Translations under genes and position numbers: made by a program
Origin: an uncultured virus (IMG/VR IMGVR_UViG_3300028048_002245)
Taxonomy: Duplodnaviria > Heunggongvirae > Uroviricota > Caudoviricetes
Strand: one strand, 5' to 3'
IMG/VR virus record: IMGVR_UViG_3300028048_002245
DNA: 64,000 nt
Shown: piece after piece, positions 13,321 through 52,879 of the stretch
Layout of the letters: each line of letters opens with the position of its first letter
Position numbering within the stretch: the first letter of the stretch is position 1
The notes under the pieces: generated by a model
Told to the model about the DNA's origin: nothing
The model's input: the letters and a program-made list of their open reading frames with translations, nothing else
Databases searched by the model: none

Positions 13321-13545
13321 TTGACATCTATGCCAGTTTATTATATTATTAACATATCATAGAGTCTTGAGATTTAAACAGTGGTTAGAGATTCCTATCT
13401 CTGACTGCTGTTTTTTAGTTTACCGTCCTTTATCAGGGCGGTATTTTTATCTCAGACGACAATTTTAGGTTCCCACAGGTGGTGGGACAGTTGTAAACCC
13501 ATACAGAGTATGGTAACTGCTTCCCCACCTGACAACGGGGACAAT
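13321..13545 (+). promoter_or_regulatory. Repeated leader L1: sigma70 promoter, two terminators and conserved structured motif
   Basis: TTGACA-17-TATTAT; hairpin plus T-run at 13379..13416 and 13422..13449; motif 13461..13543 shared with 41940..42020 and 52131..52191. Confidence 0.7.
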
Positions 13546-13648
13546 TGTTGTATGAGTTATCTGTAAGTTTCACGGAATGTGAATTATATGCTACAGATAA
13601 CTTTTTGTGTGGGTCGGTGTCCCTTTGATCACCGAGAAAGGAGTAATC

Positions 13649-14971
13649 ATGGATAACATGAATACTCAGAATCTAGTAAATGAGAATCTTGCGACAGAGG
13701 ATGATACCTCTGTGGCATTATTCGACAAGACAAGAGAGGAGGGCTTCATGACACTGATCAGGAAGCTCTCTGATCTCAAAAACTTTATAGTGATGTCAGC
13801 CACATCACTAAAAGTTCTTTTCTGGGGAAAGCCTGACCCAGAGAATTTAAATGGGCAATCTTATATAGACAAGGATGGCAACCTTGTCTTTCCTGAGAGG
13901 GATCATATTCAGGACTATCTTGAAAAAGAGGTCCCTCTTGACGTCCTGCTACATGAGGCACAGGACGGGACCGGTTTTGCTGATCTCCCTATAGGAGAAA
14001 ACGGCATGAACGTTCCGTGCCGTATTACAGCAGGAGCGGGATGGAGCTCGCTCTGTCAGAGGGCAGGCTGGGCTAACGCCCAGAACCTTCGTCCCGGTAA
14101 AAACGGGACACATAAGGCAGTTCCTTCAAAAAGACGGGTAGAACTCGTCAATGAGGGGCTGTCTTATGACGATGAAAAAATCACCGTCTATGCCCCAGAT
14201 GGTGTCTCCCGTTACTTCGGCAGCGAGAGATATGTAATCCTCTCCTACGAGGAGGGTATCAGTATAGTTAAGGATTTTATATCAAAGAACTATACTGATG
14301 CTATCTTCTTTGGAGGGGAAGTATCCCATGAGATGGTAGTTGCCCGCTACCTACTCAATGATGATGTCGAAGAGGCATCATTCTCTCTCATTCTCTCCGA
14401 TCTCCTTGGAGAGGATGTGACAGCGAAATTTCTGTTGCTGTTTTCCTCGGGTAATACCGGAGATGACACCATGCAGGCACGTCTAGTTCTTCAGATTACC
14501 ATGTCTGATGGTACTGAAGGTATGATTCCCTTTGAGGGAGGTGCCAAGATATATCATCTGAGCACTCGTGCTCATATGATATCTGGCAAATCCGTAAAGG
14601 GTGAGCCAGAAACATTTCAGGAGCAGCTTCCTCATATAGTTGACTCAGTTAGAGATAACGAGCTGGCTATTGAAAAACTTGGGAGGACACCTCTTGTCCA
14701 TCCTGAAGGCTTCATTTACCACTGGTGGGCTAAGGTGGTAAGTGATAAGGCCTTGAAAGAGGCCCGAGAAAAGGCAAAGGATTTCTCCTCCTCTCTTGCA
14801 AAGGATAAGAAAGTGACAATGGTAGATGCGTACATCTACCTTTCCTCTCTCGCCCGCGAAAGAGGAAAAGGAAACCCGAAGAAGGTCATGGACTGGCTTG
14901 AAAAAGTCAGCTCCCTTCTTGGCGACAAAAATCCTGGGCAGTATGACAAGGAACTGCCTCCTGAAAAGTAA
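13649..14971 (+). CDS. Hypothetical protein
   Basis: Long ORF; RBS AAGGAG before the ATG at 13649; no motif recognised. Confidence 0.75.
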   Translation: MDNMNTQNLVNENLATEDDTSVALFDKTREEGFMTLIRKLSDLKNFIVMSATSLKVLFWGKPDPENLNGQSYIDKDGNLVFPERDHIQDYLEKEVPLDVLLHEAQDGTGFADLPIGENGMNVPCRITAGAGWSSLCQRAGWANAQNLRPGKNGTHKAVPSKRRVELVNEGLSYDDEKITVYAPDGVSRYFGSERYVILSYEEGISIVKDFISKNYTDAIFFGGEVSHEMVVARYLLNDDVEEASFSLILSDLLGEDVTAKFLLLFSSGNTGDDTMQARLVLQITMSDGTEGMIPFEGGAKIYHLSTRAHMISGKSVKGEPETFQEQLPHIVDSVRDNELAIEKLGRTPLVHPEGFIYHWWAKVVSDKALKEAREKAKDFSSSLAKDKKVTMVDAYIYLSSLARERGKGNPKKVMDWLEKVSSLLGDKNPGQYDKELPPEK

Positions 14972-15024
14972 AAGTAAATCCTTGTTAATCATAAACTCCC
15001 GCATACAGGGAGACATCCAGGTCT

Positions 15025-16353
15025 TTGACCGCCTGTCTGCCCCGTATGCGGGAGCAGACGCCTTCGGAAAGGAAGGTGAAGGCTTTGAAAGAAGCCAGAT
15101 TACAGCTTACGACAGCTGATGACCGTAACTCGGCCATCCATATGCTTCAGACCCGTCCAGACAGGTTTGAAGTACGACAGAACGCTGTCGGAGCCTCATC
15201 TTTTGGTAAACCCTATCCCATCGCTTTATGGGACAGGGTTTATAAAAAATATATAGCAGAAGGGTATGTCGATGTTACGGAAGTACATCTTACAGAGACC
15301 TTTGCTAATAAAAAATCTTCTTCAAACGACGACCCGCTTGAAGGAGAGCAGGAGTCGGTAAAGTGGTTATGGAAAGCCCTTGCCAGATTCGCTCGGAAGG
15401 CTTTTAAGCCAAAGAGCGACTGGCAGGGCAACACTGCCGATATGACAATAACAATGGTCAAGGAAGGTCGCAAAATCCTTGACCGGCTGATAGCCGTGCC
15501 GACAGCAGATGAGAATGTTTCGGTTTTCAATGAACTTCTCATCAAACTCTTTAATGTGTGTCCTTTCCAGATGGAGCATGTTAAGGACTATCTGGCTGAG
15601 AGTTCGGATGATTTTGAAGGCATTGAAGCCTATCAGATCAACCGTCTCAACCAGATGGAGGCTCAGCTAAAAATCCAGGAGGCTCAAAAAAGTTGTAATG
15701 ACAACTCCAAGGATTCTGCTCCGAGGAAGTCATTATTTGAGACTCTTGAAATCTCAATCCGAGAAGCTACATCCGGTGAATTAAAACAGCTTCTGAGTCA
15801 CGTAGATTCTCTTACCAGAAAGAGGACTACAGGTAACGCATGGATCTGCGATAATTTCAAGACTCATGCAAGATTTAACCAGTATATGCAGGAACATACT
15901 GGTGCCAAAAAGCATTTCCTGTACCACGGCTCAGGAAATGAGAATATGCAGTCCATCATCATAAATGGACTGCTCCCGCGTTCCCGTGTAAGGGGTGTGC
16001 GAACAGTCGGAAAGATGTTCGGTCTGGGGGTTGCATACCTTGCACCTCTTGCCTTTAAGGCAGCCGGATATACTTCTTGTACATGGAAGCATGCTCCCGG
16101 CGTCGGGAGCGGAAGGGACATGAAGGATAATAAGTCATATCTGCTTGTTTTCAGAGCTGCATATGATGACAGCCATTGTCTTCATGTCCAGCAATGGAAG
16201 CCATGGATGTCTCAGCTTGATCGAGAGTCTATGGCAAAAAAGGGATACGACACCCTCTTCGCTCATAAAGGAGTTTCACTCCAGAATGACGAAGTAGTCG
16301 TATTCGACGAGGCTCAGGTGACTATATATGCCATCATTGAGCTGAATTCTTAA
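15025..16353 (+). CDS. PARP-like (H-Y-E clan) ADP-ribosyltransferase with N-terminal WGR-like and helical regions
   Basis: FLYHGS, GKMFGLGVAYLA, KAAGY and QNDEVVVFD match the PARP catalytic signature. Start codon uncertain (15025 or 15046). Confidence 0.8.
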   Translation: MTACLPRMREQTPSERKVKALKEARLQLTTADDRNSAIHMLQTRPDRFEVRQNAVGASSFGKPYPIALWDRVYKKYIAEGYVDVTEVHLTETFANKKSSSNDDPLEGEQESVKWLWKALARFARKAFKPKSDWQGNTADMTITMVKEGRKILDRLIAVPTADENVSVFNELLIKLFNVCPFQMEHVKDYLAESSDDFEGIEAYQINRLNQMEAQLKIQEAQKSCNDNSKDSAPRKSLFETLEISIREATSGELKQLLSHVDSLTRKRTTGNAWICDNFKTHARFNQYMQEHTGAKKHFLYHGSGNENMQSIIINGLLPRSRVRGVRTVGKMFGLGVAYLAPLAFKAAGYTSCTWKHAPGVGSGRDMKDNKSYLLVFRAAYDDSHCLHVQQWKPWMSQLDRESMAKKGYDTLFAHKGVSLQNDEVVVFDEAQVTIYAIIELNS

Positions 16354-16460
16354 CCTTCCTCCGTATGGGAAGGGTTTTGCTGCAAAGCATAAATCCTTCC
16401 CAACGATACGGCGTTGGAAAGGTTTTGTTTCCGCTTAACTGCGGAGGAAGGGATGATCGC

Positions 16461-17855
16461 ATGAATCATGTGATTACTATTACTGAGGTTGCTGACATTG
16501 ATAATATTGATGTCTATGCTTCAGCAGGCAACGAGCATTATTTTATTTGTCCCATGTGTCAAGGAAAGCACAAAAGGGCGAACAAAAAATGTTCATTTAA
16601 CCCTACGAAGGGCAATACCAGAGATGGTGTTGTCCAAGGTGCATGGAAATGCTTTTATGGTCATGGCGGAGGTCCGGTTGATCTTCACATGGCTGTAACG
16701 GGGATAAGTGACTACAAGGAAGCTGTAAAAGATCTCCTTGGAGATAACCATACATCTCCGCTAAATGGGGCAACTTCTGCTAATCATTATGAAGCAGTTC
16801 CAGAGCAGCCTTCTGTCCCTATTGAGCGGAGGGACAGAGTATATAAAGCTCTTCTCAAAATTCTTACCCTCTCGCAACAGGATTTTGAGAATTTTCTGGA
16901 GCCGCGGGGCTACAGCTATGAGCGGGCTGTACGATACGGCTACAGGAGCCTTCCCCTGAGTTGGAAGGCCAGAACCCGAGTGATAGACGAGTTAAAGAAA
17001 GCAGATATCGATACTGATGGAATCCCTGGGTTCTGTCAGTACGAAGGCAAGGATGCTACTATCACAACATCCAACTTCAGATATCGTCTGAAAGAAACCT
17101 TCGTAGATATCGACGAGGATGGGCACGTCATTAAAAAAAGATGCTATGATGACGTGGCAAATCCAGAGAGCAGATTCACGGTACTGCTCATCCCAGTCTA
17201 CGACATTCACTGTCGTCTGGCTTTTTTTCAGCTGGGCTGGGACAAAAGAATAAGTGGAAAATATCTGGTCAGCGTTGATGCTGATGGTATAGCCGAAACT
17301 GATGAGTTCGGAAAATATACAGCATTTTCCACTAAAAATGCTCCACATGGAGGTACAATCTATATGGAGCCTGGTATCGTAAGCCCCCACTGGGGCAGAG
17401 ATCAGAATGGTGATCTGATTCCTCTCCTCGGAGATCAGAATTGGGTCACAGTGGTTGAAGGAACACTTAAAACTCCTTTATACTTTGAAATGTCAGGTCA
17501 TCGTGAAACCTGTATTTCAAGGCCTGGTGTCGGTTCTGCTCTGCCAGGAACTCTCAAAATGCTCAGGGAGTTAAAAAGAGCAAACCAACAGCTTACGACT
17601 GTTATTGAAGCATATGATATGGATAAGTTTTCGAACGTGTATGTCTGCAAAGCATCAATTGCTTTACAGCGGGCTGTTGAACAAATGGGTTTCAAGTTTA
17701 TTATCAGGGCCTGGAATCCAAAGTATAAGGGCATAGATGACTTTGAATATGCCCGTTTAAAAGGGGAGGATGTAGGGACGTTCAGATATTTCACCCGTGT
17801 CTATATGGACACTAATGGGAAGTATCTTGATAATCCCTTATACTATCCTCTTTAA
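16461..17855 (+). CDS. Primase-like protein (zinc finger plus TOPRIM, DUF3854-like)
   Basis: CPMC..WKCF.GHGG zinc finger; VVEG.LK, AYDMD and KGIDDF TOPRIM motifs; GGAGG upstream. Confidence 0.72.
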   Translation: MNHVITITEVADIDNIDVYASAGNEHYFICPMCQGKHKRANKKCSFNPTKGNTRDGVVQGAWKCFYGHGGGPVDLHMAVTGISDYKEAVKDLLGDNHTSPLNGATSANHYEAVPEQPSVPIERRDRVYKALLKILTLSQQDFENFLEPRGYSYERAVRYGYRSLPLSWKARTRVIDELKKADIDTDGIPGFCQYEGKDATITTSNFRYRLKETFVDIDEDGHVIKKRCYDDVANPESRFTVLLIPVYDIHCRLAFFQLGWDKRISGKYLVSVDADGIAETDEFGKYTAFSTKNAPHGGTIYMEPGIVSPHWGRDQNGDLIPLLGDQNWVTVVEGTLKTPLYFEMSGHRETCISRPGVGSALPGTLKMLRELKRANQQLTTVIEAYDMDKFSNVYVCKASIALQRAVEQMGFKFIIRAWNPKYKGIDDFEYARLKGEDVGTFRYFTRVYMDTNGKYLDNPLYYPL

Positions 17856-17898: not shown

Positions 17899-17954
17899 TC
17901 TATTTCAGTCTTATCTATTTCAGATATTATATCAGATATCATATCATATATCAT

Positions 17955-18350
17955 TTACAATTGTTCAAGCAACTGGTTTATCAGTTCGTTGGCACTGATA
18001 TTATACTCTTTTGCTACTCTGTTCATATTTTCAGCTGCCTTTTCAGTAAGTCTTATGCTTTTTGCAAAGTTCCTTACTGAACGGTTTCCTTTTTTCAGGT
18101 GTATTGACATATTGCTGTCTTCAAGAGGATTAACGGATGGTGTTCCCTGTATATCTTCTTTTTTAGCCGAATCTTTTCTGACTGTATCTGTCGAAGTCAC
18201 AGGCTTAGTCTCACCCTTCTCCTCCTGCTCTATGTCATGAAGGGCACGATCTACTGCACTTTCTGATGACGTTGTTTCTTTCATGCTTTCCTGTGCTTTT
18301 TTTCTGTTGATCTCACGCATTTTATTGCGCGCTTCGCTGCTGATTGCCAT
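17955..18350 (-). CDS. Small centromere-binding partition protein (type Ib ParB/RHH-like)
   Basis: Coupled to parA; disordered N-terminus and C-terminal KSIRLT..AAE.M..VA...NIS.NELI ribbon-helix-helix pattern. Confidence 0.65.
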   Translation of the reverse strand: MAISSEARNKMREINRKKAQESMKETTSSESAVDRALHDIEQEEKGETKPVTSTDTVRKDSAKKEDIQGTPSVNPLEDSNMSIHLKKGNRSVRNFAKSIRLTEKAAENMNRVAKEYNISANELINQLLEQL

Positions 18351-19114: not shown

Positions 19115-19169
19115 ATTTTCCTTTCTTTTAACATTTGTTTTTATTTTACGTTCGTAATTATATGCCAAT

Positions 19170-19810
19170 ATTATATTTTTGTCAATATCTTATATGATAT
19201 TTTATATTATATGGTATATATAATTTGATATGTATTATGATATCATATAACATATCAATTTATATATTATTTTTATGTATTTTTTATTTCAGTAAATTAT
19301 ATATGATATTATATCTGATATCATTTATAATATTGATATGTATATATATTCTTATATTTATTTATCTATTCATCTGTATATTGAATTATACTTATAGATA
19401 AGCAATATAACGCATTCAATATCTATTTCAATATCAATATATATACTTATATGCATATATGAAACAATATGATATTATATATCATATCAGGAGATAATAA
19501 ATATTATTATTTGGTTTATGATATCAACGACGGTATGACTTACAATATCATATTGTGTATTATATTCTATATGGATTATAATATTGTCTGTAATATAGTA
19601 TACGGTATAATAGTCACTATCACAGATTGTATTACAGGACAGTAATACAATATCCGATATTATATACAATATTATATCTGATATTATTATTTATATAAAA
19701 TATGAAATAAAATATATACATAAATATGCTTTATGGTATCATATTTAATATGATATATAATATCAGTCTATGTATCATATATAAGTAGCTTTTTATATAT
19801 TATTCATGAT
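19170..19810. repeat. Extremely AT-rich region with many TGATAT/ATATCA motifs (candidate parS centromere)
   Basis: Numerous TGATAT/ATATCA hexamers upstream of parA; similar clusters at 17920..17955 and 38812..38890. Confidence 0.55.
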
Positions 19811-33356: not shown

Positions 33357-33917
33357 CTATTTGAAACAACAGGTCTTTTTGCGTATCAGTTCAATGATAG
33401 CAACAAGATCTTCCGCTATCTGTTCTGGAGTACGATATTCGTACAGTGAGAACATATAGCTATTTTTGTTCGTTCCATCCCATCTTTTGCCATTTTTTTT
33501 ATCATTTACCTTGTTGTAGAATTTAACAGGATACCCCTGCCATTCTTCGAGGTTTTTATGATAATCGTCAACGAGGATTGCATTTTTTTCGTTGACGTAT
33601 TTTGATTTGTCTTCCCCATCTGGCAAAATAATAGGGTAGACTTCCTGTAAACCTGCCTTACCGATAACTGACATTTTATCAGCTGTAGCTTCGGCAGATG
33701 GGCTGCAGGAAAGGAGGCAGTTCTTTATGTTTAATTCTGTCTCCTTGGAACGTAGCAGCTTAATAGCTTTTACTACGTTCCATTTTATTGGCAGATTAAG
33801 CCAATAATGAGGTTGTTTCCAGTCAGCTCCCTTTAGAAAGTCCAAAACAACCCCGTCAATATCCCAGTAAATGAAGAATGTCGCCTCATTTACGAGACTG
33901 TAATTCAAAGTAGCCAT
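33357..33917 (-). CDS. HAD-family 5'(3')-deoxyribonucleotidase (NT5C-like)
   Basis: WDIDGVVLDF motif I, a conserved K, ILVDDY..NL..W. Confidence 0.78.
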   Translation of the reverse strand: MATLNYSLVNEATFFIYWDIDGVVLDFLKGADWKQPHYWLNLPIKWNVVKAIKLLRSKETELNIKNCLLSCSPSAEATADKMSVIGKAGLQEVYPIILPDGEDKSKYVNEKNAILVDDYHKNLEEWQGYPVKFYNKVNDKKNGKRWDGTNKNSYMFSLYEYRTPEQIAEDLVAIIELIRKKTCCFK

Positions 33918-34008
33918 AGACCACCTTGTTCATCCCTCTCCGCATCAGAGGGATAGGACGCCTTTCTCCGTCCTTATCCCTCAGAAGAGGGGGAGTACGA
34001 CTTAGTTA

Positions 34009-36126
34009 TTACTTTACGTCAACTCCGTGAGTAAAGTAATAACTGAGCTTATCTTTTAATGTTGTCTGTCTGCTGTATGTTTCCTCATGTCCGATAGCAT
34101 AGGAAACAGCAGACTGGTCACCGACCAGGATGCACTCTTTCTTTGCACGGGTGATACCCGTGTAGATAAGATTCCTATTTAGCATCCTCATCTGGGACGG
34201 CAGTATACACATAATGACACATGCATATTCCGAACCCTGTGATTTATGGATACTCATGGAATATCCCAGTTCAAGCATATTCAGGTCTTCTTTTTCATAG
34301 GTCTGAACATTGTCTCCAAACTGGATATCAAGAGTGCAATTCTGCTCATCCACCCCTACAACTGTTCCGACATCACCATTGGCTAAGCCGTTCCAGTTCC
34401 TTGTCTGTAGCACAAGATCTCCTTCACGGAATATCCTGTTTCCACATGCTACAGATTTGCCAACAGGGTTAACGTAATACTGTGCGTAGCCATTGAGGCT
34501 GTCTACGCAGCATTTTGTCATACCTCTATGGAGGGGAGAGAGCAGTATCACCTGTTCTTTTCCATACTGTGCCACCTTTTTGCGATAGATGGTCAGTATG
34601 TCTTTGCAGGCTTCTCTGTCTTCGTCTGCCTGGTAAGCCATGAAGGTCTTACCATCAAAGATGAGGCTGTCATCTCCGACACGGATCTTTTCAGCATTAG
34701 GAATGATATTGCTGTCACCCTTTTGTCTGAACACGTCCGTAAGGCGGACAACAGGAATAAGCCCGCTTTCAATCAAATCACGCAGAACAGCACCTGCACC
34801 TACACTTGGAAGCTGATCGATATCGCCTACAAATGTAAGCTGAGAGTCATCTGATACTGACTTCATCAGGTCTCTTGCGAGCCAGATGTCGAGCATTGAT
34901 GACTCATCTACAATAACGGTAGCTTCTGTTATCGTATCAGGCTGCGGTCTGAAACTTTCTGCATCATCGATGCACAGAGCACGATGGATTGTCGTGGAAG
35001 GCAGTCCTGTTGACTCTGCAAGTTTCTTCGCCGCACGTCCGGTCGGAGCCATCAGACGCGAATCTTTACGCTTTCCGTATTTTCTACGGATATCTGTAAT
35101 GACCTGCATGATAGTGGTCTTGCCTCGACCGGGGCCTCCTGTAATAACGCTAAATCCGTTGCTTAAAGCTGCTTCAACAGCCTGTTTCTGCTGTACGGCA
35201 AGCGTCATCCCATGACACTTTTCCCATTCGATGATTTTTTCAGGTATCCCTGTTATAACATCTCCTGGGTTCTGACACAGTTCATATGCTCTTTGAGCGA
35301 TAGCATATTCTGCACCAGATGCACTCTTTCGAAGGAACAGCTTTTCCTTCTTAGAGTAAGAAAGGCGTTTGTCGATAAACTTTCTGTCTATCACGCCTCT
35401 TATCTGCTCCCGTGTATATCCGTAACGGGAGACTTTTTTAATCAGTCCTTCCAGACTGATGCCTGTGTTCCCACAGGCTTCATTTCTCTTCATCTCGAAG
35501 AGAATCTTACCCCAGATCACTTGGGGTGATTGGGCATCATAGCCGTCCTTTGCAGCGAGTTCGTCTGCAAGATGGAATGTACCACCTGGCATATCAGCGA
35601 ACTCATAAGGATCATTTACAGCCCAATCAATGGCTTTGTTTCCAGCCAGACGGTAAATCTGGCATATCTGGGTAGTGGAAAAACCCAGAGGAAACAGTTT
35701 GCAGAGAAGTCCTCGGGCACTTCTCTGTAACAGGACTTCATCAGATATGGCAAGTGCCGTTTTCTGAGTCAGTCCCCTAATTCCGACGATCTTTTCGGGT
35801 AATCTTTCAACCGTTTTAAGAGTGGCTTCTCCGAATACCCCAAAAATCGAGTCAGCTGTAATGAAGTCGCATCCGCTCTGCTGTAACAGAGTGATTACAT
35901 TCCTATGATCCGACTTTATCAGCCGTTTCATGTAGGAAACGGAGAATATTTCTCCGTACTTCGATTTTTTGACGTCACCCTCGAAGGAAGTGACGAACTT
36001 GTCCTGAGGCAGGAACTGCCCCTCGCACTTTACGGACTTCTTTGCATCAATGTCCATATACAGTGCGATTACAAAGTTGTCTTTTTTATAGATAGCTTTG
36101 TAAAAGACTCCTGTAAATTCCGCCAT
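34009..36126 (-). CDS. recD2: RecD2-like SF1B DNA helicase
   Basis: GGPGRGKTT, APTGRAA, TIHR, VDESSM, GDIDQLPSVG, SIHKSQGSEY, YTGITRA; N-terminal HhH region. Confidence 0.92.
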   Translation of the reverse strand: MAEFTGVFYKAIYKKDNFVIALYMDIDAKKSVKCEGQFLPQDKFVTSFEGDVKKSKYGEIFSVSYMKRLIKSDHRNVITLLQQSGCDFITADSIFGVFGEATLKTVERLPEKIVGIRGLTQKTALAISDEVLLQRSARGLLCKLFPLGFSTTQICQIYRLAGNKAIDWAVNDPYEFADMPGGTFHLADELAAKDGYDAQSPQVIWGKILFEMKRNEACGNTGISLEGLIKKVSRYGYTREQIRGVIDRKFIDKRLSYSKKEKLFLRKSASGAEYAIAQRAYELCQNPGDVITGIPEKIIEWEKCHGMTLAVQQKQAVEAALSNGFSVITGGPGRGKTTIMQVITDIRRKYGKRKDSRLMAPTGRAAKKLAESTGLPSTTIHRALCIDDAESFRPQPDTITEATVIVDESSMLDIWLARDLMKSVSDDSQLTFVGDIDQLPSVGAGAVLRDLIESGLIPVVRLTDVFRQKGDSNIIPNAEKIRVGDDSLIFDGKTFMAYQADEDREACKDILTIYRKKVAQYGKEQVILLSPLHRGMTKCCVDSLNGYAQYYVNPVGKSVACGNRIFREGDLVLQTRNWNGLANGDVGTVVGVDEQNCTLDIQFGDNVQTYEKEDLNMLELGYSMSIHKSQGSEYACVIMCILPSQMRMLNRNLIYTGITRAKKECILVGDQSAVSYAIGHEETYSRQTTLKDKLSYYFTHGVDVK

Positions 36127-36129: not shown

Positions 36130-36407
36130 CCCTCCTTTCTAGGATGAGTTGTAGATTTGCACATTATCTACACCTCCTGACGTACAGAAAAGACGGCTCT
36201 CTTGAGCCGTCCTTTCAACAATAGACCGTTCCATTAAGGCGGGAAAGCAGAACTGATAAACAGGTCCACTCCCGTCACTTACGGGAACCATATGATGATG
36301 TCAGGAGATTAAAAACAAAAAAGCAGCCAGAAAGAAAACCTTTCTAACTGCTAAAATCTTATGACAACTATATGTAATATAATACTACATACGACGTGCA
36401 ATGTCAA
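36130..36407 (-). promoter_or_regulatory. Repeated leader L2 upstream of recD2
   Basis: TTGACA-17-TATTAT; terminator GCAGTTAGA..TCTGGCTGC-T6; divergent GGTTCCC..GGGAG..TTCCCGCC motif; second terminator near 36188..36215. Confidence 0.65.
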
Positions 36408-40385: not shown

Positions 40386-40393
40386 TTATTCAG

Positions 40394-41854
40394 TTACTTT
40401 TTTGCATTTGAAGGTGCGGAGGTTGTAACTGAAACCTCAAGTTCTCCTGTTGGCTTTCTCTTGGCAAACTGCTCAAGATCAGTCTTATCCGCCAGGTCAG
40501 CTTTAGCAGCTTTAAGCGGTTTTGCGGAGAACTTCTCCTTAACCAGCTTATTATAGAGGGTTGGAGCCTCTTTCTTAAGGGTCTTGAACCCTGTCGCCAT
40601 CATAGACGGCTGGAGACCTTTGTCCCAAAGATCTGGGCGCTCGGTCTTGATACGGGCTTCATCATACCCGTCTGCCTTGGTCTTCTCGTTGATACTGAGA
40701 AAGACCTTTTTCCCATCAGCTGTTGTATAAACAGCCTTGGCATTGTTTTCCTTATCAAAGGTAGGAAGCAGCTTGGAGAGAGCTTCCTCTTTATCCGCCT
40801 TGATCTTTGCAAGAGCATCGAGATGCCTCTTGCTTTCCTGCTTTTCTTCCCAGTCAAGTCTGGAAAGTTCTTCAGCATATGAGCCGAGTGCAGGCTCAAG
40901 ATTAAACGGCTTTTCCGACTCCTTATAGCCGATTCCATATTTTGCATAGGCATCGACTGTATGATGAGCTGTGTCATCATTTGGAATCTTCACTTCAGAG
41001 CAGTCTACGGCAAACTGCTCTACTTTTTTAAGGATGCGAATTTCCACATTTTTATCCCTTTCGACCTTTCGGACGAGAAGGTTTTGTGGATACAGCCCGT
41101 CATCCCTGGGAGCGACGGCGATGAACCAAAGAGGAAGGTTCATTACCGCCATGTAGTATCTTGTCTGAACCTCGTAGGGTTCAGGGCAACCTACTACATT
41201 GAGGCTGTCAACTCTCCACTTGGCTGTGGAGAGCTCAATCTTACGGGTGGTCTTTATCTCCAACCCGTAATAACCCAATGTCACGTCGTTATCGACACCG
41301 AGTTCAGGATCGAACTTATGAAGTTCAATTAGTCTGTCGATATCGGCAACTACGTGTGGGAACGCCAGGTTCCCTTCGCTGTCCAGTATACCACACTGAA
41401 ACAGCGATTTGTCCTCAACGAGGAATCCATATAAGCCTGCTGGCTTCAGGTATTCCTCGTTTATCTTGTCGAGAGCCATTGCAGCTACGGCTCCTTCAAG
41501 ATTGTTACCGGCTTCCATAGCTGAGGTATCACGCTCAGCTTCCTGTCTGCCTGTAAGCTGGTAATACAGGGCAAGCTTGCCGTTAAAGGCTTCCGGGACA
41601 CCGTTTTCATGTCCCGGATAAATGCCTGCAACAGCCGCTGCAGAGCTGGCTCCGATGCAGCAACCGTCTGAGACTCTGCCGCCCGCTGTCTTACGATCAG
41701 CGAGCCATTTGGCATCATCTCGGACAGTCTGCCTGTCTGCTCCCAGGACTGGCTGCCCTGAGAGATATTTTTTAACCCAATCGTTGCTGTCAGCAACTTT
41801 TATTGGGTTTCCATTTTTATGCCCTTCTGGGGCTTTTATCTTAACAAGAGACAT
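40394..41854 (-). CDS. YqaJ/lambda-exonuclease-like recombinase
   Basis: W...R...IGAS.AA, G..LE, ADID, LEIKT and Q...YM motifs. Confidence 0.8.
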   Translation of the reverse strand: MSLVKIKAPEGHKNGNPIKVADSNDWVKKYLSGQPVLGADRQTVRDDAKWLADRKTAGGRVSDGCCIGASSAAAVAGIYPGHENGVPEAFNGKLALYYQLTGRQEAERDTSAMEAGNNLEGAVAAMALDKINEEYLKPAGLYGFLVEDKSLFQCGILDSEGNLAFPHVVADIDRLIELHKFDPELGVDNDVTLGYYGLEIKTTRKIELSTAKWRVDSLNVVGCPEPYEVQTRYYMAVMNLPLWFIAVAPRDDGLYPQNLLVRKVERDKNVEIRILKKVEQFAVDCSEVKIPNDDTAHHTVDAYAKYGIGYKESEKPFNLEPALGSYAEELSRLDWEEKQESKRHLDALAKIKADKEEALSKLLPTFDKENNAKAVYTTADGKKVFLSINEKTKADGYDEARIKTERPDLWDKGLQPSMMATGFKTLKKEAPTLYNKLVKEKFSAKPLKAAKADLADKTDLEQFAKRKPTGELEVSVTTSAPSNAKK

Positions 41855-41939
41855 TTTTGTCTCTCCTTTCTCCCATCAATACGTGACGGGTCGTTTAAAT
41901 AAACAGAACCAGATATAATCTGGTTCAGATACATAAGAA

Positions 41940-42020
41940 GTCCCCGTTATCCGGTGGGGCGGTAATCCTTTTTAAGCCTGTATGGTCGATTACTCCCACC
42001 TGATGCGGGAACCTAAAATT
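41940..42020 (-). promoter_or_regulatory. Conserved structured leader motif upstream of the yqaJ-like gene
   Basis: AATTTTAGGTTCCC..AGGTGG..GTAATC/GATTAC..CCCCACC..AACGGGGAC, matching 13461..13543. Confidence 0.7.
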
Positions 42021-42031
42021 TTAAGGAAATG

Positions 42032-42391
42032 TCAGGCACGACTGGCATTGTATGCCCGAACCATATCCTTTATCTCTCTAGGGAGAGAATATGGCTCGCC
42101 GTCGAAGACGGCTCTGCGGCATACGCTCATCGCATATGCCAGTGCGTCCTGGTAGTTATGTCCCAATTTAACGGCAAACGCCGTATAGTTAAGGACATCT
42201 TTCTCCCAATCAGGATATTCATCCTGATAATATAATTCTCTGCCTGCTGTTATAGCAGCCACTATAGTATCAGTAGCTGCCACCTTTTCACTTTCAGACA
42301 GAGAGTTGAACCCAGCCATCTTCTCAAATCGCTTGATGGCTGCATACTCCGCTTTTACAGGGCGAAGATTCTCTACATATTTTCTACCCAT
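42032..42391 (-). CDS. Hypothetical protein
   Basis: RBS AGGAGG; downstream of leader L3. Confidence 0.7.
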   Translation of the reverse strand: MGRKYVENLRPVKAEYAAIKRFEKMAGFNSLSESEKVAATDTIVAAITAGRELYYQDEYPDWEKDVLNYTAFAVKLGHNYQDALAYAMSVCRRAVFDGEPYSLPREIKDMVRAYNASRA

Positions 42392-42399
42392 TGATTTAT

Positions 42400-42619
42400 C
42401 CTCCTATAGGTCAGAAAATATATGCCGCCCTGAGGATACAGAAACTCTCTGCAACCTGATTCCACAAGGGGCGACATAAGATGTTGTACCCCGTGGAAAC
42501 GGGTATTAAAAACAAAAAATGCAGGAGCTGAATCTTTTCAAAATAGAAAAAATCAGTTCCTGCATATTTCTTATTACTGTAATTAGTTTTATTATAAACT
42601 AACTACGTCAATAATGCAA
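42400..42619 (-). promoter_or_regulatory. Repeated leader L3
   Basis: TTGCAT-17-TATAAT, long hairpin plus T6 terminator, then a hairpin containing ACGGGGTACAAC. Confidence 0.55.
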
Positions 42620-42877
42620 GTTTATTATCACAAGTCTGACAACTTGTATTACTTTATTTACAAAAAAACTCCCTGCTTCGGCAGAAAAAAAGTAACGGTA
42701 TTCCTTTGAGAATATTTTATTCGTATTGGGAATACTGATATTCCTATTGGAATATGTTTATTCTGGAAAATGGAGTGTATATGCGTATAGATATGGATAT
42801 AATTACATATTTACAGCTGATTTCAGAAAAGATTTTTTCCCTTTAGACTGTATAATACAAGGGCAGGAGGATATATA

Positions 42878-45514: not shown

Positions 45515-45543
45515 TTTATGGAAAGAAAGACTGCTTCTTGTCT

Positions 45544-45641
45544 TTGACATATATGCCAATATACTTTATAATATAACATATATCTAGTCAAAAGGTATTT
45601 TTAAAGTCGTTAGAATCTGATGATTCTGGCGGCTTTTTTGT
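45544..45641 (+). promoter_or_regulatory. Repeated leader L4
   Basis: Perfect TTGACA-17-TATAAT followed by an AGTCGTTAGA..TCTGGCGGC-T6 terminator. Confidence 0.7.
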
Positions 45642-45676
45642 TACAAGTCCCGATTTGCTAAAGAAAAGAAAGGAGC

Positions 45677-46111
45677 ATGATTATGGGATGGACAGGTATC
45701 CCGAAGCACTTTGACAGTGCTTCAGAAAAAAAACAGTACCTTGATGGTCTCTTCAGAGACGGAATAAAGGTGCTACTTTCGAGGATGGTCAGCAATGAGT
45801 ATTATGCTGCCATTCAACAGGAAGACGGTACTGTGACTGCTTATGTCGTAAAGACGGCAAGCAGGAGTGCAGAATTCCTTTATAAAGGAGTATCTGAGGA
45901 CTGTGGTCCGATATGGACTAAATGCCCTCAGATGATTCTTAAAATCCTTTCTCCGACTGAGAACCAGTGGGCTCTCAAGTGGAGACAGGAGTGTGTCGAG
46001 TATAACGAGGCACAAAGAATCAAAAGGCGGAAATACGAGAAAACCGCCAGAGAAAAAAATAAAAATGAAAGGGCACAGCTTAAAGCTGCTATAGCAGCCG
46101 CTCTTGACTAA
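45677..46111 (+). CDS. Mobile-element hypothetical protein (DUF6927-like)
   Basis: MGW start; YK..SE.CGP...CP..IL..LSPT....A..WR..C motif. Confidence 0.6.
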   Translation: MIMGWTGIPKHFDSASEKKQYLDGLFRDGIKVLLSRMVSNEYYAAIQQEDGTVTAYVVKTASRSAEFLYKGVSEDCGPIWTKCPQMILKILSPTENQWALKWRQECVEYNEAQRIKRRKYEKTAREKNKNERAQLKAAIAAALD

Positions 46112-46283
46112 TCATTTTTTTAACACCCGCTACAACGAGACAATATATATTGTTCTTGTGCAGTGGGTGTTTTTTTGACCAAAAATCAAGAACAGTTCCT
46201 TGTAGTGTGTTATAATTATAAAAGACGGTACATCAAATATTGAGATATACAGATATTATAGCAAAGGAAGATATATAAAATTT

Positions 46284-47390: not shown

Positions 47391-47650
47391 TACCCACGGG
47401 CAAGCCCGTGGGGTTGCAATAGAAATACTGTAACCCTGAGTGAGTAGCCTAAGTGCTTTAAGCACTACGTTAAGAGAGAATATATAGGTACTTTGGAATG
47501 TAGTACCAAGTTCCAAACACTACGGTCTGTGATTAAACAGCTCTGAGGTATAGGAGCAGTGTTGCAGACACATAAACCTCTCATTAACATTGGCGATGGT
47601 ACACTAACCACCCTTCGGGGTGAGTAACTAAAACCTTTTAAGGTTTTAAG
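47383..47650 (+). ncRNA. IscB omegaRNA scaffold
   Basis: Structured region upstream of iscB, homologous to 8350..8620 and 4490..4805. Confidence 0.8.
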
Positions 47651-47665
47651 AAAGGAGTACGACTT

Positions 47666-48904
47666 ATGGTCTATGTATTATCAAAAACCGGACAGCCTTT
47701 AATGCCTACAGAAAACCATGCTAAAGTACGTATTCTTTTAAAGCAAGGTAAGGCAAAGGTAGTACACCGCTGTCCGTTTACAATACAACTGTTGTATAGT
47801 AGCACGAACTATACACAAAAGGTAACTTTAGGCATAGATAGTGGAAGTAAGCATATTGGTCTTTCAGCAACTACAAAGGATAAAGTATTATTTGAGTCTG
47901 ATGTAGAGCTTAGAAACGATATTGTAGACTTACTTTCTACTCGTAGAGAATTAAGACGTTCCCGTAGGAGTCGTAAAACCAGATACCGTAAAACACGATT
48001 TAACAATCGCAGGCGCAGTGACAGATGGTTAGCACCCTCTGTAAAACAAAAAGTAGACTCTCACATTACGATGATAGCAAAGATACACAAAATACTGCCT
48101 ATCTCAAATATCATAGTAGAAGTAGCCTCTTTTGATATCCAGAAGATTAAGGATCCTGCAATAAGTGGTACAGATTATCAAAAAGGTGAACAGTTAGACT
48201 TTTGGAATGTGCGTGAGTACGTCCTCTTTCGTGATGACCACACTTGTCAGTGCTGCCACGGAAAATCAGGAGATAAAATTTTAAACGTACATCACATAGA
48301 AAGCCGTAAGACAGGTGGTAATGCACCCAATAATCTCATTACACTATGTGAAACCTGTCATACTGGATATCATAAGGGAACCGTAAAACTACCTAAGACA
48401 ATACATAGAGGAATGTCTTTTAAGGATGCTACGTTTATGGGCATCATGCGTTGGGCTTTGTATGGGAAACTTAAGTCTATATATCCAGACGTAAAACTTA
48501 CTTACGGATATATTACTAAAAACGTTCGTATAAAAAACGGTTTGCCAAAGGATCATTATATAGATGCTCGTTGTATTAGTGGCAATCCTAACGCTGCTAG
48601 TAACGGAGATGTCTATTATTATAAAAAAGTCCGTTGCCACAATAGGCAGATACACAAGAATACCATCCTTAAAGGTGGTTATCGTAAATGTAATCAGGCT
48701 CCATATGAAGTTAAAGGTTTTAGACTTTTTGATAAGGTACAGTGGAAAGGATGTAAGTGTTTTATTTTTGGCAGACGCTCTACAGGACGTATGGATTTAA
48801 GGCTTTTAGACGGAACACATATTAACGCTTCTGTAGGATACAAGAACCTAAAGTTGTTAAAAATGCGTAGTAGTTATCTTATAGAACAAAGAAAGGTAGG
48901 TTAA
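47666..48904 (+). CDS. iscB: IscB RNA-guided nuclease
   Basis: PLMP, GIDSGS, bridge helix, HNH (VHHI..GG..P.NLITLC..CH), HYIDA. Confidence 0.95.
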   Translation: MVYVLSKTGQPLMPTENHAKVRILLKQGKAKVVHRCPFTIQLLYSSTNYTQKVTLGIDSGSKHIGLSATTKDKVLFESDVELRNDIVDLLSTRRELRRSRRSRKTRYRKTRFNNRRRSDRWLAPSVKQKVDSHITMIAKIHKILPISNIIVEVASFDIQKIKDPAISGTDYQKGEQLDFWNVREYVLFRDDHTCQCCHGKSGDKILNVHHIESRKTGGNAPNNLITLCETCHTGYHKGTVKLPKTIHRGMSFKDATFMGIMRWALYGKLKSIYPDVKLTYGYITKNVRIKNGLPKDHYIDARCISGNPNAASNGDVYYYKKVRCHNRQIHKNTILKGGYRKCNQAPYEVKGFRLFDKVQWKGCKCFIFGRRSTGRMDLRLLDGTHINASVGYKNLKLLKMRSSYLIEQRKVG

Positions 48905-48953
48905 ATGCGGTTCCTCCCACAGGCAAGCCTGTGGGTTTCCCCGCTAAATATTT

Positions 48954-50192
48954 ATGACAATGCTTAGATCGATAGACATATTTGCCGGGTGTGGAGGTCT
49001 GTGTGATGGATTTGTACAGTCAGGTCGCTATCAGACCCTTGCTGCGGTTGAATGGAACGAAGCACCTGTAAATGTACTCAGAAAGCGTCTTTCTGATAAA
49101 TGGGGAATGGATGACGCTGAAAAAAGAGTTATCAGGTTTGATGTCCAGAGAACCGATGAGCTTATCCGTGGGTGGACTGGTGATGAGGAATATGGTTCAT
49201 GCGACGGTCTTGAAAAGTATATAGATGGCTCTCTTGATGTAGTGATAGGCGGTCCTCCATGTCAGGCATATTCAATAGCCGGCAGGGTGAGGGATAAAAA
49301 TGGGATGCGGCTTGATTACAGGAATTATCTGTTTGAAAGTTATATCAGAGTGATACGGCATTTTGAACCGAAAATCTTTGTTTTTGAAAATGTGCCAGGT
49401 ATATTGTCGGCGAGACCTGGAGATGGTTCATTTAAGATAATTGACAGAATACGGGATGAATTTGACAAGGCAGGTTATGCAGTGCTGAGTGATCTGTCAA
49501 AAGCCGTGGTTGATATGACTGAATATGGTGTTCCGCAGAATCGTAAAAGGATTATCATTCTTGGACTGAATAAGAAGTATTATGGAGGTTCCAAAAAGTG
49601 TGGGAAGATTCTCTATGATTTCTATACAAGGATACTGCCGTTTTACAAGTCAGATCATGTCATGACTGTAAGAGATGCCATATCAGATCTTCCGAAACTC
49701 TTTCCTCTTGAAAAAGACATCAGGATAGACGGTCATCATCTGTCACACAGCCTTCCAGAACTACCTGTAGATGGACATATACCAAGATATCACAGCCAGA
49801 GAGATATAAAGATATTTCGTATGCTTGCAGAAGACATTTTATCAGGGGAGAGAAAATATGAATCCACGGAAGCCTTGAAGGAGCTTTATACGAAAGTCAC
49901 AGGCAAAGTATCGAATGTACATAAGTATCATGTATGCGAATGGGACAAACCGAGCAATCTTATACCTGCACATCTTTATAAGGACGGACTCAGGCATATA
50001 CATCCTGATCCTGAGCAGGCCAGAACTATAACGGTAAGGGAAGCTGCACGGCTTCAGACTTTTGATGATGACTTTTGCTTTGGCAAAAGTATGACAGAGG
50101 CATACAAGATGATAGGCAATGCCGTGCCACCACTTTTTGCAAAAAAACTTGCACTTGCAGTAAGCGATATGATGGAAAAATACTCGAAATAG
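48954..50192 (+). CDS. dcm: C5-cytosine DNA methyltransferase M2
   Basis: DIFAGCGG, GGPPCQ, ENV, PQ.RKR, REAARLQ, IGNAVPP. The true start may be 48960. Confidence 0.93.
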   Translation: MTMLRSIDIFAGCGGLCDGFVQSGRYQTLAAVEWNEAPVNVLRKRLSDKWGMDDAEKRVIRFDVQRTDELIRGWTGDEEYGSCDGLEKYIDGSLDVVIGGPPCQAYSIAGRVRDKNGMRLDYRNYLFESYIRVIRHFEPKIFVFENVPGILSARPGDGSFKIIDRIRDEFDKAGYAVLSDLSKAVVDMTEYGVPQNRKRIIILGLNKKYYGGSKKCGKILYDFYTRILPFYKSDHVMTVRDAISDLPKLFPLEKDIRIDGHHLSHSLPELPVDGHIPRYHSQRDIKIFRMLAEDILSGERKYESTEALKELYTKVTGKVSNVHKYHVCEWDKPSNLIPAHLYKDGLRHIHPDPEQARTITVREAARLQTFDDDFCFGKSMTEAYKMIGNAVPPLFAKKLALAVSDMMEKYSK

Positions 50193-50315
50193 ATATGTTT
50201 CAGTTGAATATTCCAGTTAATTGAAAAAATGATGAAATCCGTCTCTTCTTTATGTATAATAGATATGGTTGTCGGCAACCATTAACTTTCGTTGTGCAGA
50301 AGTGAGGCGGATTTT

Positions 50316-51356
50316 ATGCTGTTTTACAGAAATCTTGACCAGATAGTTTATGAACGGTATAAACTATTCAAATGCGATGACATTGTTATAATCTCAGGAT
50401 ATGTAGGACCTGCTCCTATAGAGCGTATAAGCCATATTCCGATGCATACTACAGTAATCTATGGTATGTATGGCAGTGATGGTATTGGTTCTGCCCTTCA
50501 TTCATCCCTTATAGCTGAAGACAGGGCACACAGTAACGTAGACATATTGTATTCGACCGTTCCTGTTCATTCAAAGATATATATGTGGCGGTACAAAGAT
50601 GAGGTAGCCCAGGCTCTGATAGGAAGTGCTAATTTTTCTACTAATGGGCTTACCACGCCATATAAGGAGACTCTGGCAGAAACCACGGCAGATACCTTTG
50701 AGGCACTGGACAGATATTATAAACATATTCTGTCTAACTGTCTTGGATGTAGGGATGGGAAAATTGAACTTAAACGTAAGAGCGGGTTTACCAGTAGCAA
50801 GGTAGCCGAGAGAAGATATAGTCGAATAGCAGAAGAATATGATCCAAAAGTATGTCACATGCCATTATATATAATCAATAAAGAAACAGGAGAACCGGAA
50901 GTTCCTCCAAAAAGTGGTCTTAACTGGGGGATGGCATACTATTCGGGAAGCCATGTAAACAAAGATGATGCATATATACCCATAAATGCATTTCAGGTAG
51001 AGCAACATCCCGAGATGTTTCCCGTAAAGCGTACAGAACCAGTGAGGAAAGACATGATATATAGGGCAGATCACAGGGATAACGATCCTATTGATATTAT
51101 CTGGGATGACGGGACTACGATGACCGGACTTCTGGAAGGTTCAAGAGTTGTAAAGACAGATGGAATCAGAAAAGAATATCCCAAGCAGATAGCTACCACT
51201 CCGAATAAATCTGAACTGGGGAGATATATAAGGCAGAGAATGGGCATTCCCGAAGGGAAAGCCATTGCATTATCAGATCTTGACAGATATGGCAGAAGAA
51301 CTATAGACATAAGCCTTCAGGGTGAAGGCATATACTATCTGGATTTTTCAGTATAA
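50316..51356 (+). CDS. PLD-family (NgoFVII/BfiI-like) restriction endonuclease
   Basis: HSKIY..IGSANFS..G...E HKD nuclease motif; C-terminal DNA-binding domain; follows two methylases. Confidence 0.85.
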   Translation: MLFYRNLDQIVYERYKLFKCDDIVIISGYVGPAPIERISHIPMHTTVIYGMYGSDGIGSALHSSLIAEDRAHSNVDILYSTVPVHSKIYMWRYKDEVAQALIGSANFSTNGLTTPYKETLAETTADTFEALDRYYKHILSNCLGCRDGKIELKRKSGFTSSKVAERRYSRIAEEYDPKVCHMPLYIINKETGEPEVPPKSGLNWGMAYYSGSHVNKDDAYIPINAFQVEQHPEMFPVKRTEPVRKDMIYRADHRDNDPIDIIWDDGTTMTGLLEGSRVVKTDGIRKEYPKQIATTPNKSELGRYIRQRMGIPEGKAIALSDLDRYGRRTIDISLQGEGIYYLDFSV

Positions 51357-51386
51357 AGACAGACTGATTTGTTTTTTTTAGGAACA

Positions 51387-51415
51387 CAAAAAGACCGCCC
51401 TGATAAAGGACGGTC
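51387..51415 (-). terminator. Intrinsic terminator identical in stem to 13422..13442
   Basis: ACCGTCCTTTATCAGGGCGGT plus T-run on the minus strand. Confidence 0.7.
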
Positions 51416-51429
51416 GAAAAGATAGAGGG

Positions 51430-52092
51430 TTATTCAGGTATTGGCTCTGCCTCGATGTGATCGGTGATCATACCGCAGATGTCAAATACCCAACTCCACT
51501 GTTCATCAGTGGGGTCATAAGTTCCCTCCTCAGACCTGTTTTCAAGGTCATGGAGAGCATCCAGTACAGCCCTTATCTTCTTCTTTTTGCTGTTTTCTTT
51601 CTGTGCTACAGCAATAAAGCTCTGAAACTTTTTTAGTCCTTCCTGATAATCTGTGTTGTCGGCACAGTAATCAGTTAGGATTTTTATTTCCGTCATGAAA
51701 TGAATATAAAATTCATCTGACGGAATTGTTATTAGTTCCATCGTCAGCACTGTATATGCTGATGAAACCATTTTGTCAAGGGAGGTTACCCCATTTCCCT
51801 CCTTCTTGACAATGGAATGATGAGTGGCATTCCGAGGGGATATGAATGCCTCATTCCATACCCTGTCAAACTGATTGAGGATGTCATACCTCAAATTTGA
51901 CAGGGCTTTTTTATACTTCCCTCTCTTATCCTTTTCAGGAATAAGAGAGTCATTTTTACGATAACGGTCAATCATCGCAAGCAGATTTCTCTGCATATCG
52001 GTGAGACCGTCATCTTCTTTTATGTATGGTGCTGTAAAGGGAGCAAACTCCTTTACAACCCCTATATTTTTTACACGAATGCACATAGGCAC
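51430..52092 (-). CDS. Hypothetical protein
   Basis: Long ORF downstream of leader L5; start uncertain. Confidence 0.65.
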   Translation of the reverse strand: MPMCIRVKNIGVVKEFAPFTAPYIKEDDGLTDMQRNLLAMIDRYRKNDSLIPEKDKRGKYKKALSNLRYDILNQFDRVWNEAFISPRNATHHSIVKKEGNGVTSLDKMVSSAYTVLTMELITIPSDEFYIHFMTEIKILTDYCADNTDYQEGLKKFQSFIAVAQKENSKKKKIRAVLDALHDLENRSEEGTYDPTDEQWSWVFDICGMITDHIEAEPIPE

Positions 52093-52130
52093 TCCTTTCT
52101 CTCCTTGTCAGGAGAAAACTTGTTTTTTAG

Positions 52131-52300
52131 TTGTCCCCGTAAGGTGGGGAAGTGTGATACTAATGTAAGACACCCTGCCACCCGCAGGACCGTTCAGAGA
52201 ACAAAAAAACAGCCAGACAAGATATGAAATCTTATCTGACTGTTATGTGTCTTTGAACTTTTATATTTTCTATTATATATCAAAGGTCCACATTATTCAA
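52131..52300 (-). promoter_or_regulatory. Repeated leader L5 with structured motif
   Basis: TTGAAT-17-TATAAT; ACAGTCAGA..TCTGGCTG-T7; CCTGC GGGTG GCAGG..CTTCCCCACCTTACGGGGACAA. Confidence 0.7.
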
Positions 52301-52342
52301 GTGATACCTAGTCAGTAAGATTTCTGAGAGAGTAATATACTG

Positions 52343-52699
52343 TTACATCGGAATATATATCATCATAGCTGCTAACAGAATAAGCGTAACTGTAAGGCTG
52401 ATTACAGAACGAACCATTTTTTTTGCTTCCTGCTTTCTCGCCTGACGTTCCATATATCCGATAGGATCCTTTTTGAATTCATCATCTTCTTCAGACGGAA
52501 TATATCCGCCTTTTAAAATATCATTACCTCTCCCGCTTTCATCTGCAAGCCAGAACAGATATTTCCCGTCTTTATATATCTCAAGCCTGTATCTTGCTCT
52601 TCCTACATAGAAGATGTGACAGTGTATCATCTTCTCATTTTCCATGAACTTTATCTGGCTTTTTGTAAGTTCTATTGTCTGATCCATCGTTGTCTCCAT
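52343..52699 (-). CDS. Hypothetical protein with C-terminal TM helix
   Basis: ORF downstream of leader L6. Confidence 0.6.
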   Translation of the reverse strand: METTMDQTIELTKSQIKFMENEKMIHCHIFYVGRARYRLEIYKDGKYLFWLADESGRGNDILKGGYIPSEEDDEFKKDPIGYMERQARKQEAKKMVRSVISLTVTLILLAAMMIYIPM

Positions 52700-52747
52700 T
52701 CTATATCTGTCTGTTCTGATGTTGTTATGATGACAGATATCCTTATA

Positions 52748-52879
52748 ATAAAAAAATCGCCAGATAGTACTCTTTTCTAAGCATTATCTGACGACTTGTT
52801 GTTTCTGTTACTTTAACTGACTGGTGTTTTATATAACCTATCTTGTCTGTATTGTACAGGATATGAAACGAAATGTCAA
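52748..52879 (-). promoter_or_regulatory. Repeated leader L6
   Basis: TTGACA-17-TACAAT; AGTCGTCAGA..TCTGGCGA-T7 terminator. Confidence 0.65.

Follow-up and report, generated by a model that had tools for sequence, protein, structure and literature searches.

Several described systems place a terminator or a repeated control sequence between a promoter and its genes; statements on the papers cited here refer to the parts of them that were consulted. In the ANTAR leaders of EutV, NasR, and AmiR (PMC3369931), a promoter is followed by a short leader and a terminator with a protein-held 5' arm, the targets being a pair of 3-bp hexaloop hairpins (A1, G4), of which the second overlaps the terminator. 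AlpA of Pseudomonas and lambda Q likewise act, at several loci, on a promoter followed by at least one intrinsic terminator before the first gene (PMC7969949, PMC9371919). Among plasmid systems, EGeRS2/Reg576 of p576 comprises several strong promoters with a shared motif heading dispersed genes (PMC6294495, PMC8708921), EGeRS1 of pLS20 is a repeated, GC-rich and hairpin-rich sequence that lies upstream of operons and blocks read-through (PMC8708921), and conAn and the zipper attenuator cATT of pLS20 control read-through with leader terminators and long imperfect stems (PMC8191782, PMC13401043). Here we analyse 64,000 nt (the window) of IMG/VR record IMGVR_UViG_3300028048_002245, which is part of a large plasmid-type element of rumen Lachnospiraceae type. 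Its sequence supports the view that DNA-handling genes are preceded by a recurring leader with a terminator as gate. Our preferred reading, with a probability of roughly 0.45, is a dispersed regulon gated by regulated, sequence-specific antitermination, in which a trans-acting protein would bind a 9-nt box and the 5' arm of the first terminator (T1) and thereby block T1.

The leaders are named here with their first −35 base and strand: L1 (13321+), L2 (36407−), L3 (42619−), L4 (45544+), L5 (52300−), and L6 (52879−), i.e. 2 on the plus and 4 on the minus strand (Table 1). An earlier note on this DNA had reported six near-consensus promoters with 17-bp spacing. All six sigma-A-type promoters are confirmed at these positions and with this spacing, the mismatches to TTGACA/TATAAT being 1, 1, 3, 0, 2, and 1 for L1 to L6, respectively. 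For L3, however, the term is generous, since all 3 mismatches lie in its −35, the −10 being perfect. As also reported, an intrinsic terminator follows each promoter, with hairpin energies from −15.8 to −21.3 kcal/mol and T6–7. If transcription is taken to start 7 nt after the −10, T1 ends at about +55 to +95, which predicts terminated RNAs of about 55–95 nt.

In the window the stem GTYAGA..TCTGRC has 5 copies, all of them in leaders (L1, L2, L4, L5, and L6), exactly as had been claimed for five leaders. Stem plus T-tract is found 5 times vs a mean of 0.005 in dinucleotide shuffles (0/200 reach 5), and the stem alone 5 times vs 0.92 (1/200 reaches 5), both statistics being post hoc because the patterns were derived from these copies. 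This G.U-rich stem is present in 5/6 first terminators and in 0/14 other terminators tested. The G.U wobble in the transcribed direction is also real for these five leaders: their transcribed strand folds 5–10 kcal/mol better than the complement, as does that of a related hairpin at 55558, and L3 shows no such advantage. With a terminator cut-off of −14 or better within 125 nt, 5/18 promoter-like sites of the window with at most 2 mismatches are followed by a terminator (4/5 at no more than 1 mismatch), vs 6/119 in 534 kb from 50 partly redundant Clostridia loci; several of these 6 are themselves attenuator-type leaders.

A second shared element, missed by the earlier note together with the third terminator of L1 (13556–13606), is a 9-nt box, GTNNWRAGR, lying 13–14 nt after the −10 in L1–L5 and nowhere else in the window. 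In the transcript it would occupy about +8 to +16. Being strand-specific and present as one asymmetric copy per leader, it does not resemble a dimer operator, and two of its positions vary freely. The count of 5 in the window compares with 0.3 in shuffles, and its information content is reached by 1/400 random sets of five, the motif having been defined on these same copies; only 1/119 of the background promoters carries it.

Regarding routes past T1, separate promoters 3' of the terminators had been named as a possible objection to a gate, and no good one is present between T1 and the start codon: the best site has 3 mismatches in L1 and 4–5 in the others, with no extended −10, and in L4 this interval is 43 nt only. 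Leader folding revealed no RNA-only switch or competing fold. Structures available before T1 closes reach −0.5 to −7 kcal/mol; in L1 and L2, the pairing probability of T1 is 1.00 as long as its arm is free, and T1 and the second and third terminators (T2, T3) pair at P 0.95–1.00 with or without the box blocked. Having neither a downstream promoter nor an RNA-only antiterminator, the leaders therefore need a trans factor or leakiness. Joint release by a trans factor, as proposed earlier, keeps its footing to this extent, but no factor was identified among the 55 proteins of the window. The box as an antisense −35 and a leader peptide were weighed by inspection and dropped.

The sequence shows that each strong promoter starts a transcript that meets T1 within about 20–50 nt, and that no stable fold competes with T1 as long as the 5' arm of T1 is free. 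In the preferred reading, an RNA-binding protein, whose gene most likely lies on the part of the plasmid beyond the window, would bind the box and the conserved 5' arm while both emerge from RNA polymerase, stop T1 from forming, and so switch on recombination, helicase, and accessory genes together; without this factor, 55–95-nt RNAs would be made. Processive systems bypass terminators regardless of sequence (PMC10325885). A stem-reading factor would account for the restriction of the shared stem to first terminators, which processive bypass would not explain. The fixed distance of the box, the lack of a competing fold and of a good downstream promoter, the gated homologous operons of related integrative elements, and RNA contigs that bridge T1 of L3–L6 also speak for this reading. 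A bolder extension, which we consider rather unlikely, is that an antiterminator of unknown family, encoded by a conjugative plasmid, reads the box and the G.U-rich arm and switches the dispersed DNA-handling genes jointly, and that the short RNAs serve as a threshold-setting sink. Taken with the unrelated leader family of the integrative elements, this would mean that Clostridia mobile DNA in general has a so far undescribed layer of control with an element-specific code.

Several points weigh against regulated antitermination. L3 lacks the shared stem and L6 the box. The extra terminators of L1 and L2 stay formed with the box blocked, so a T1-specific factor leaves them unexplained. No ANTAR, CAT/PRD, NusG, or Q-like family, and hence no antitermination factor, was found among the 55 window proteins, and three orphan gated proteins are without family assignment. 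No diverged orthologous leader was found that could supply covariation evidence. The likeness of the leaders could partly reflect copying of one cassette. Finally, the RNA contigs described next fit plain leakiness equally well.

The RNA evidence consists of contigs from 4/21 bovine-gut runs over 40400–53100, which include L3–L6 and not L1 or L2. It rests on 32 of 282 pieces, which show neither strand nor level and in which DNA may be present; runs X11–X15, X20, and X21 (small word shares; X13 covers little) and gaps in contig cover were not used. The T-tract is crossed in L3 (X6, X9, X1), L4 (X1), L5 (X6, X1), and L6 (X6, X9). At L3, contigs of two studies end ~20 nt before the predicted start is reached, at 42562 in X6 and at 42566 in X9; one X6 contig (51434–52830) is nearly the predicted unit from L6 to the end terminator. 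Mean depths of the gated units vs the clpB/methylase genes are 142, 156, and 192 vs 11–16 in X6 and 45, 38, and 7.7 vs 3–4 in X9, with the reservation that contig depths cannot rank genes, X1 merges regions, and DNA is possibly present. These contigs give a slight indication that the gates are open in at least some of the natural rumen populations. It makes the proposed "off by default" state doubtful, and the gate would therefore not be simply "off until transfer".

Crossing of T1 also suits constitutively leaky terminators, the strongest of the rival explanations, which we nevertheless regard as unlikely. Here the abundant 55–95-nt RNAs, with the box exposed, would be the functional product (protein decoys or small regulators), and read-through would give the mRNAs, so that the conservation of box and stem is accounted for without a factor. 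After read-through the box can pair past the T-tract, which would hide it in long RNAs; however, this pairing is weak (p 0.026–0.27, L1–L5), and as a switch it was rejected, having no effect on T2/T3 or on ribosome sites. Furthermore, no leader matches Rfam at gathering score or at E up to 5, no complementary target exists in the window, and every copy precedes a gene, the sole stand-alone copy being the promoterless one at 55558.

Processive antitermination with the logic of lambda Q or N, AlpA, or conAn comes next and is also improbable. The box would be a loading site, and the modified polymerase would pass all leader terminators, in keeping with the fixed position of the box relative to the −10 and with the tandem terminators (three in L1, two in L2). 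AlpA targets, including one with two terminators, have the same layout (PMC7969949). AlpA, however, binds between −35 and −10 (PMC7969949), where the leader alignment contains no element common to all six spacers (they are alike only in pairs, L1/L4 and L2/L3), and the conserved element of the plasmid leaders is transcribed. Sequence-conserved stems, which such systems do not need, set the plasmid leaders apart from AlpA and Q targets, and no homologous factor was seen in the window. In addition, the hairpin of the second L1 terminator also ends the L6/L5 unit, and the X6 RNA contig stops there (51434), which is a weak argument.

Less probable again is a role of the box as DNA operator bound by a plasmid repressor, as in the Reg logic of p576, T1 being a throttle or insulator only. 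Two EGeRS2 promoters do have the operator just after the start site (PMC8708921), in L4 and L5 the preceding gene is terminated by T1 as well, and the L4 spacer and the parA promoter have a 13-mer in common. On the other hand, the box is single and not a repeat, the leader alignment shows neither a shared repeat upstream of the −35 nor a dual heptamer, the other four leaders head divergent units with no upstream gene to end, and repression in established cells fits the RNA contigs poorly. The 13-mer itself (45550–45562 in the L4 spacer; 19159–19171 on the opposite strand at parA; part in L1) is a possible binding site.

Antisense RNA that pairs with the leaders and controls T1, one of the release routes proposed earlier, is very unlikely. 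Such control is known for other Gram-positive elements (pCF10; PMC13401043), and the window covers only about half of the plasmid contig, but the longest complementary runs in the window are 15–18 nt with G.U, at shuffle level (p 0.05–0.82), CRISPR spacers do not match the leaders, and two box positions vary freely. Release by the single-stranded state after transfer is the least credible of all: although long hairpins precede the genes and single-stranded-DNA (Frpo-like) promoters are known for F and ColIb-P9 (PMC8708921), such promoters arise solely from a hairpin of the single strand and share one strand, whereas the leaders occupy both strands behind intact double-stranded consensus promoters, T1 as DNA reaches no more than −6 to −12 kcal/mol and folds better on the RNA strand, and the RNA contigs hint at expression in cells without transfer.

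As for the likeness to described systems, the ANTAR-type paired hexaloop (A1/G4) is absent upstream of T1 in all six leaders, with two matches inside the L3 terminator. Membership in EGeRS, which the earlier note had brought up for comparison, is not supported. EGeRS1 copies are 420–750 bp long and 62–95% identical, with no sigma-A promoter in the description consulted (PMC8708921), whereas the present leaders have promoters with 0–3 mismatches, untranslated leaders of 104–293 nt, and a mean column identity of 48%, and are not among the largest repeat families of the window. EGeRS2 is controlled by an RHH repressor at dual heptamers, the consulted description giving no leader terminator (PMC6294495, PMC8708921); its strong promoters have a counterpart here, the dual heptamer operator just upstream of the −35 was not found, and RHH has no match among the gated genes, three of which are orphans. 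On p576 a repressor times the establishment genes, and the EGeRS1 mechanism is described as unknown (PMC8708921). In conAn and cATT, a cis-acting RNA switch with near-equal energies serves one conjugation operon (PMC8191782, PMC13401043), in contrast to six dispersed short leaders; the alternative fold of similar energy that a zipper attenuator needs was not found in L1 and L2.

The same layout precedes homologous operons elsewhere. Among 10 genomes compared, homologs of RecD2, YqaJ, and the first and third L1 genes stand in one operon in elements of five (G020, G208, G159, G199, G073); in the DNA retrieved from the other five, RecD2 was not seen. A terminator separates the promoter from the first gene in 4/5 of these Lachnospiraceae integrative elements (G208, G159, G199, G073); in G020 none reaches the scan threshold, although it does have T-tracts. 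Within 40 kb, G073 carries its own leader motif 7 times; a Cas12a (Cpf1) gene (L215 7623–11150, G073:C2) lies directly behind one of its promoter-terminator leaders. In the leaders of these elements the 5' motif lies near the start site, beginning 6–9 nt after the −10. A profile built from nine such leaders gave no match to the plasmid leaders, i.e. homology is not detectable, and the gate is therefore conserved with its cargo while its sequence is private to each family. No repeated leader was detected in the scan of G338, G147, and G158, which hold the nearest homologs of the first L1 gene.

Further copies of the leader itself were not found. The strict pattern has 0 matches in viral contigs, a further 11 matches having no terminator behind; 62 matches in genome contigs include none with a box-type leader on inspection; 401 genomes of the family of G001 gave 1 chance-like match; and among 109 metagenome matches only 4 are this plasmid, near 100% identical. 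Covariance model R1, a weak probe (four sequences, imperfect alignment, 7 pairs), found 0/151 genomes and a best E of 0.025 in 57 loci at sites preselected by the pattern. No description of the leader was found in the literature, searched without subscription journals and supplements. The leader thus appears to be uncatalogued in Rfam and in the literature searched, the gate principle being already familiar. In 21/62 of the pattern-selected genome matches, the stem pattern is preceded by an ANTAR-type hexaloop, and the genes behind such matches are nitrogen-related in 8/8 cases checked. Chromosomal leaders of this kind in gut Clostridia (loci L001, L015, L022, L023, L031, L045, L051, L053, and others) have one ANTAR-type hexaloop overlapping the terminator, with ammonium transporter, P-II, glutamine synthetase III, aminotransferase, and amidohydrolase genes behind.

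Gated operons and further hairpins are listed in Table 1. The first L1 protein has no Pfam family and no PDB match at E 0.001 or better in a structure search (predicted fold with pLDDT 85.6); the label "DUF932-like" is not given by Pfam. The third L1 protein has an integrative-element homolog with a CHC2 zinc finger. The PARP-catalytic-domain protein (15025–16353) has homologs beside those of the first L1 gene in G147 and G338. The products of L6, L5, and the first L3 gene have 2 relatives or no family.

Of the second terminators claimed for L1 and L2, that of L1 stands (T5), and that of L2 has a strong stem but T4 only. The hairpin of the former (13422–13448) also serves as the end terminator of the L5 gene (51388–51414, operon end at 51415 on the minus strand). 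Eight GC-rich, long imperfect hairpins (E elements; z from −2.6 to −6.3) lie before gated genes and also between genes. Four of them align with a common small inner hairpin, changed on both sides at 3/6 pairs. They resemble EGeRS1 in kind only, not by sequence comparison, and our guess is that RNase III processes them; kissing loops between them were weighed by inspection and dropped. The similar hairpin reported near 55556..55590 is real and related, located at 55558–55589. It occupies the position of an operon-end terminator at the end of ORF 54963–55541, with no promoter of at most 2 mismatches before it. In a search with a model built from L1, L2, L4, and L5, the hairpins of L3, 55558, and L6 are the top three of 18 other hits (E 0.04–0.22), and no further leader copy was found in the window.

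Table 1. Positions of promoters, boxes, terminators, further hairpins, and gated genes of the six leaders in the window
Feature	Position	Strand	Remarks
L1 promoter	13321..13349	+	−35 13321–13326, −10 13344–13349
L1 box	13364..13372	+	14 nt after −10
L1 T1	13379..13416	+	−18.4 kcal/mol, T6
L1 second terminator	13421..13448	+	T5
E hairpin, L1 leader	13469..13542	+	
L1 third terminator-like hairpin	13556..13606	+	T5
L1 operon	13649..17855	+	440-aa protein, PARP-domain protein, third protein with CHC2-linked homolog
E hairpins inside L1 operon	14994–15056; 16353–16450	+	
L2 promoter	36379..36407	−	
L2 box	36357..36365	−	13 nt after −10
L2 T1	36317..36351	−	−15.8 kcal/mol, T6
E hairpin, L2 leader	36230–36292	−	
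L2 second terminator-like hairpin	36188..36217	−	strong stem, T4 only
L2 operon	33357..36126	−	RecD2 helicase, nucleotidase-like ORF (weak PHROG match)
E hairpin inside L2 operon	33935–33996	−	
L3 promoter	42591..42619	−	weak −35, perfect −10
L3 box	42569..42577	−	13 nt after −10
L3 T1	42514..42564	−	−21.3 kcal/mol, T6; without shared stem
L3 operon	40394..42476	−	119-aa orphan ORF, YqaJ/RecE-like exonuclease
E hairpins, L3 operon	42422–42476; 41938–42014	−	
L4 promoter	45544..45572	+	perfect consensus; directly after clpB end
L4 box	45587..45595	+	14 nt after −10
L4 T1	45606..45639	+	−15.8 kcal/mol, T6
L4 gene with long-stem end terminator (46124–46176)	45683..46176	+	142 aa; weak DUF6927 match, below cut-off
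L5 promoter	52272..52300	−	directly after L6 gene
L5 box	52250..52258	−	13 nt after −10
L5 T1	52203..52242	−	−18.9 kcal/mol, T7
E hairpin, L5	52134–52191	−	
L5 unit	51386..52191	−	218-aa ORF of no family, end terminator 51415–51386
L6 promoter	52851..52879	−	no box at fixed position
L6 T1	52750..52794	−	−17.4 kcal/mol, T7
L6 gene	52343..52687	−	114-aa orphan
Related degenerate copy	55540..55589	+	box-like stretch and hairpin 55558–55589, −11.2, T7

Upstream of the L2 (recD2) promoter, ~20–33 bp before the −35, lies a palindrome (36427–36440) which we take to be LexA-like; it is the only match in the scan, near chance level. A contig of run X9 has the right end of the IS605/TnpB element fused to the L4 leader at 45604/45605, after TTTAA, so that the junction falls between the L4 box and the terminator and represents an insertion in that strain. 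Another assembly (locus L128) has a 2.2-kb insertion just upstream of the L5 promoter (52341–52347), with two ORFs resembling IS200/605 genes.

The plasmid setting rests on the family scan of window proteins, which detected two Rep3 initiators, ParA, and a type II/IV secretion ATPase, as well as type I and type II restriction-modification, RecD2, the YqaJ-type nuclease, ClpB, ThyA, a DarA C-terminal domain, and IscB/HEARO and TnpB mobile elements; viral protein scans gave no match. The named members of the ThyA cluster are Lachnospiraceae, and bovine-gut runs contain near-identical sequence. Relatives with 83–93% identity occur on contigs P0002, P0003, and P0134. The longest contig with these proteins has 118,767 bases. 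A PLSDB search returned no close plasmid. Iterons of 21 bp lie beside the first rep gene (12759–12923), an AT-rich repeat tract around parA (17912–17958; 19173–19787) is a likely centromere, and a second repeat-rich origin region (36560–37400) lies upstream of the second rep gene. A CRISPR array of ~10 repeats (58730–59480) has no cas gene among the 55 proteins scanned and no spacer target in the window or the comparison loci searched. A short element at 55700–55768 equals both ends of an IS605/TnpB element fused. Loci L121, L143, and L188, all on one 33,959-bp contig, are the same plasmid, ~11 kb shorter between 21389 and 36043; the absent segment is likely a type I restriction cassette plus ISL3, with short repeats flanking at 22.3 and 33.1–33.2 kb, and on this contig 40338 is joined to 1009 at a palindromic IS end.

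This plasmid family is rare, and its leader layout has precedents. In Gram-positive conjugative elements, the timing of establishment and recombination genes is only partly known, and a short leader present in six copies could lead to a new antiterminator and, for work with gut Clostridia, to an orthogonal gene switch.

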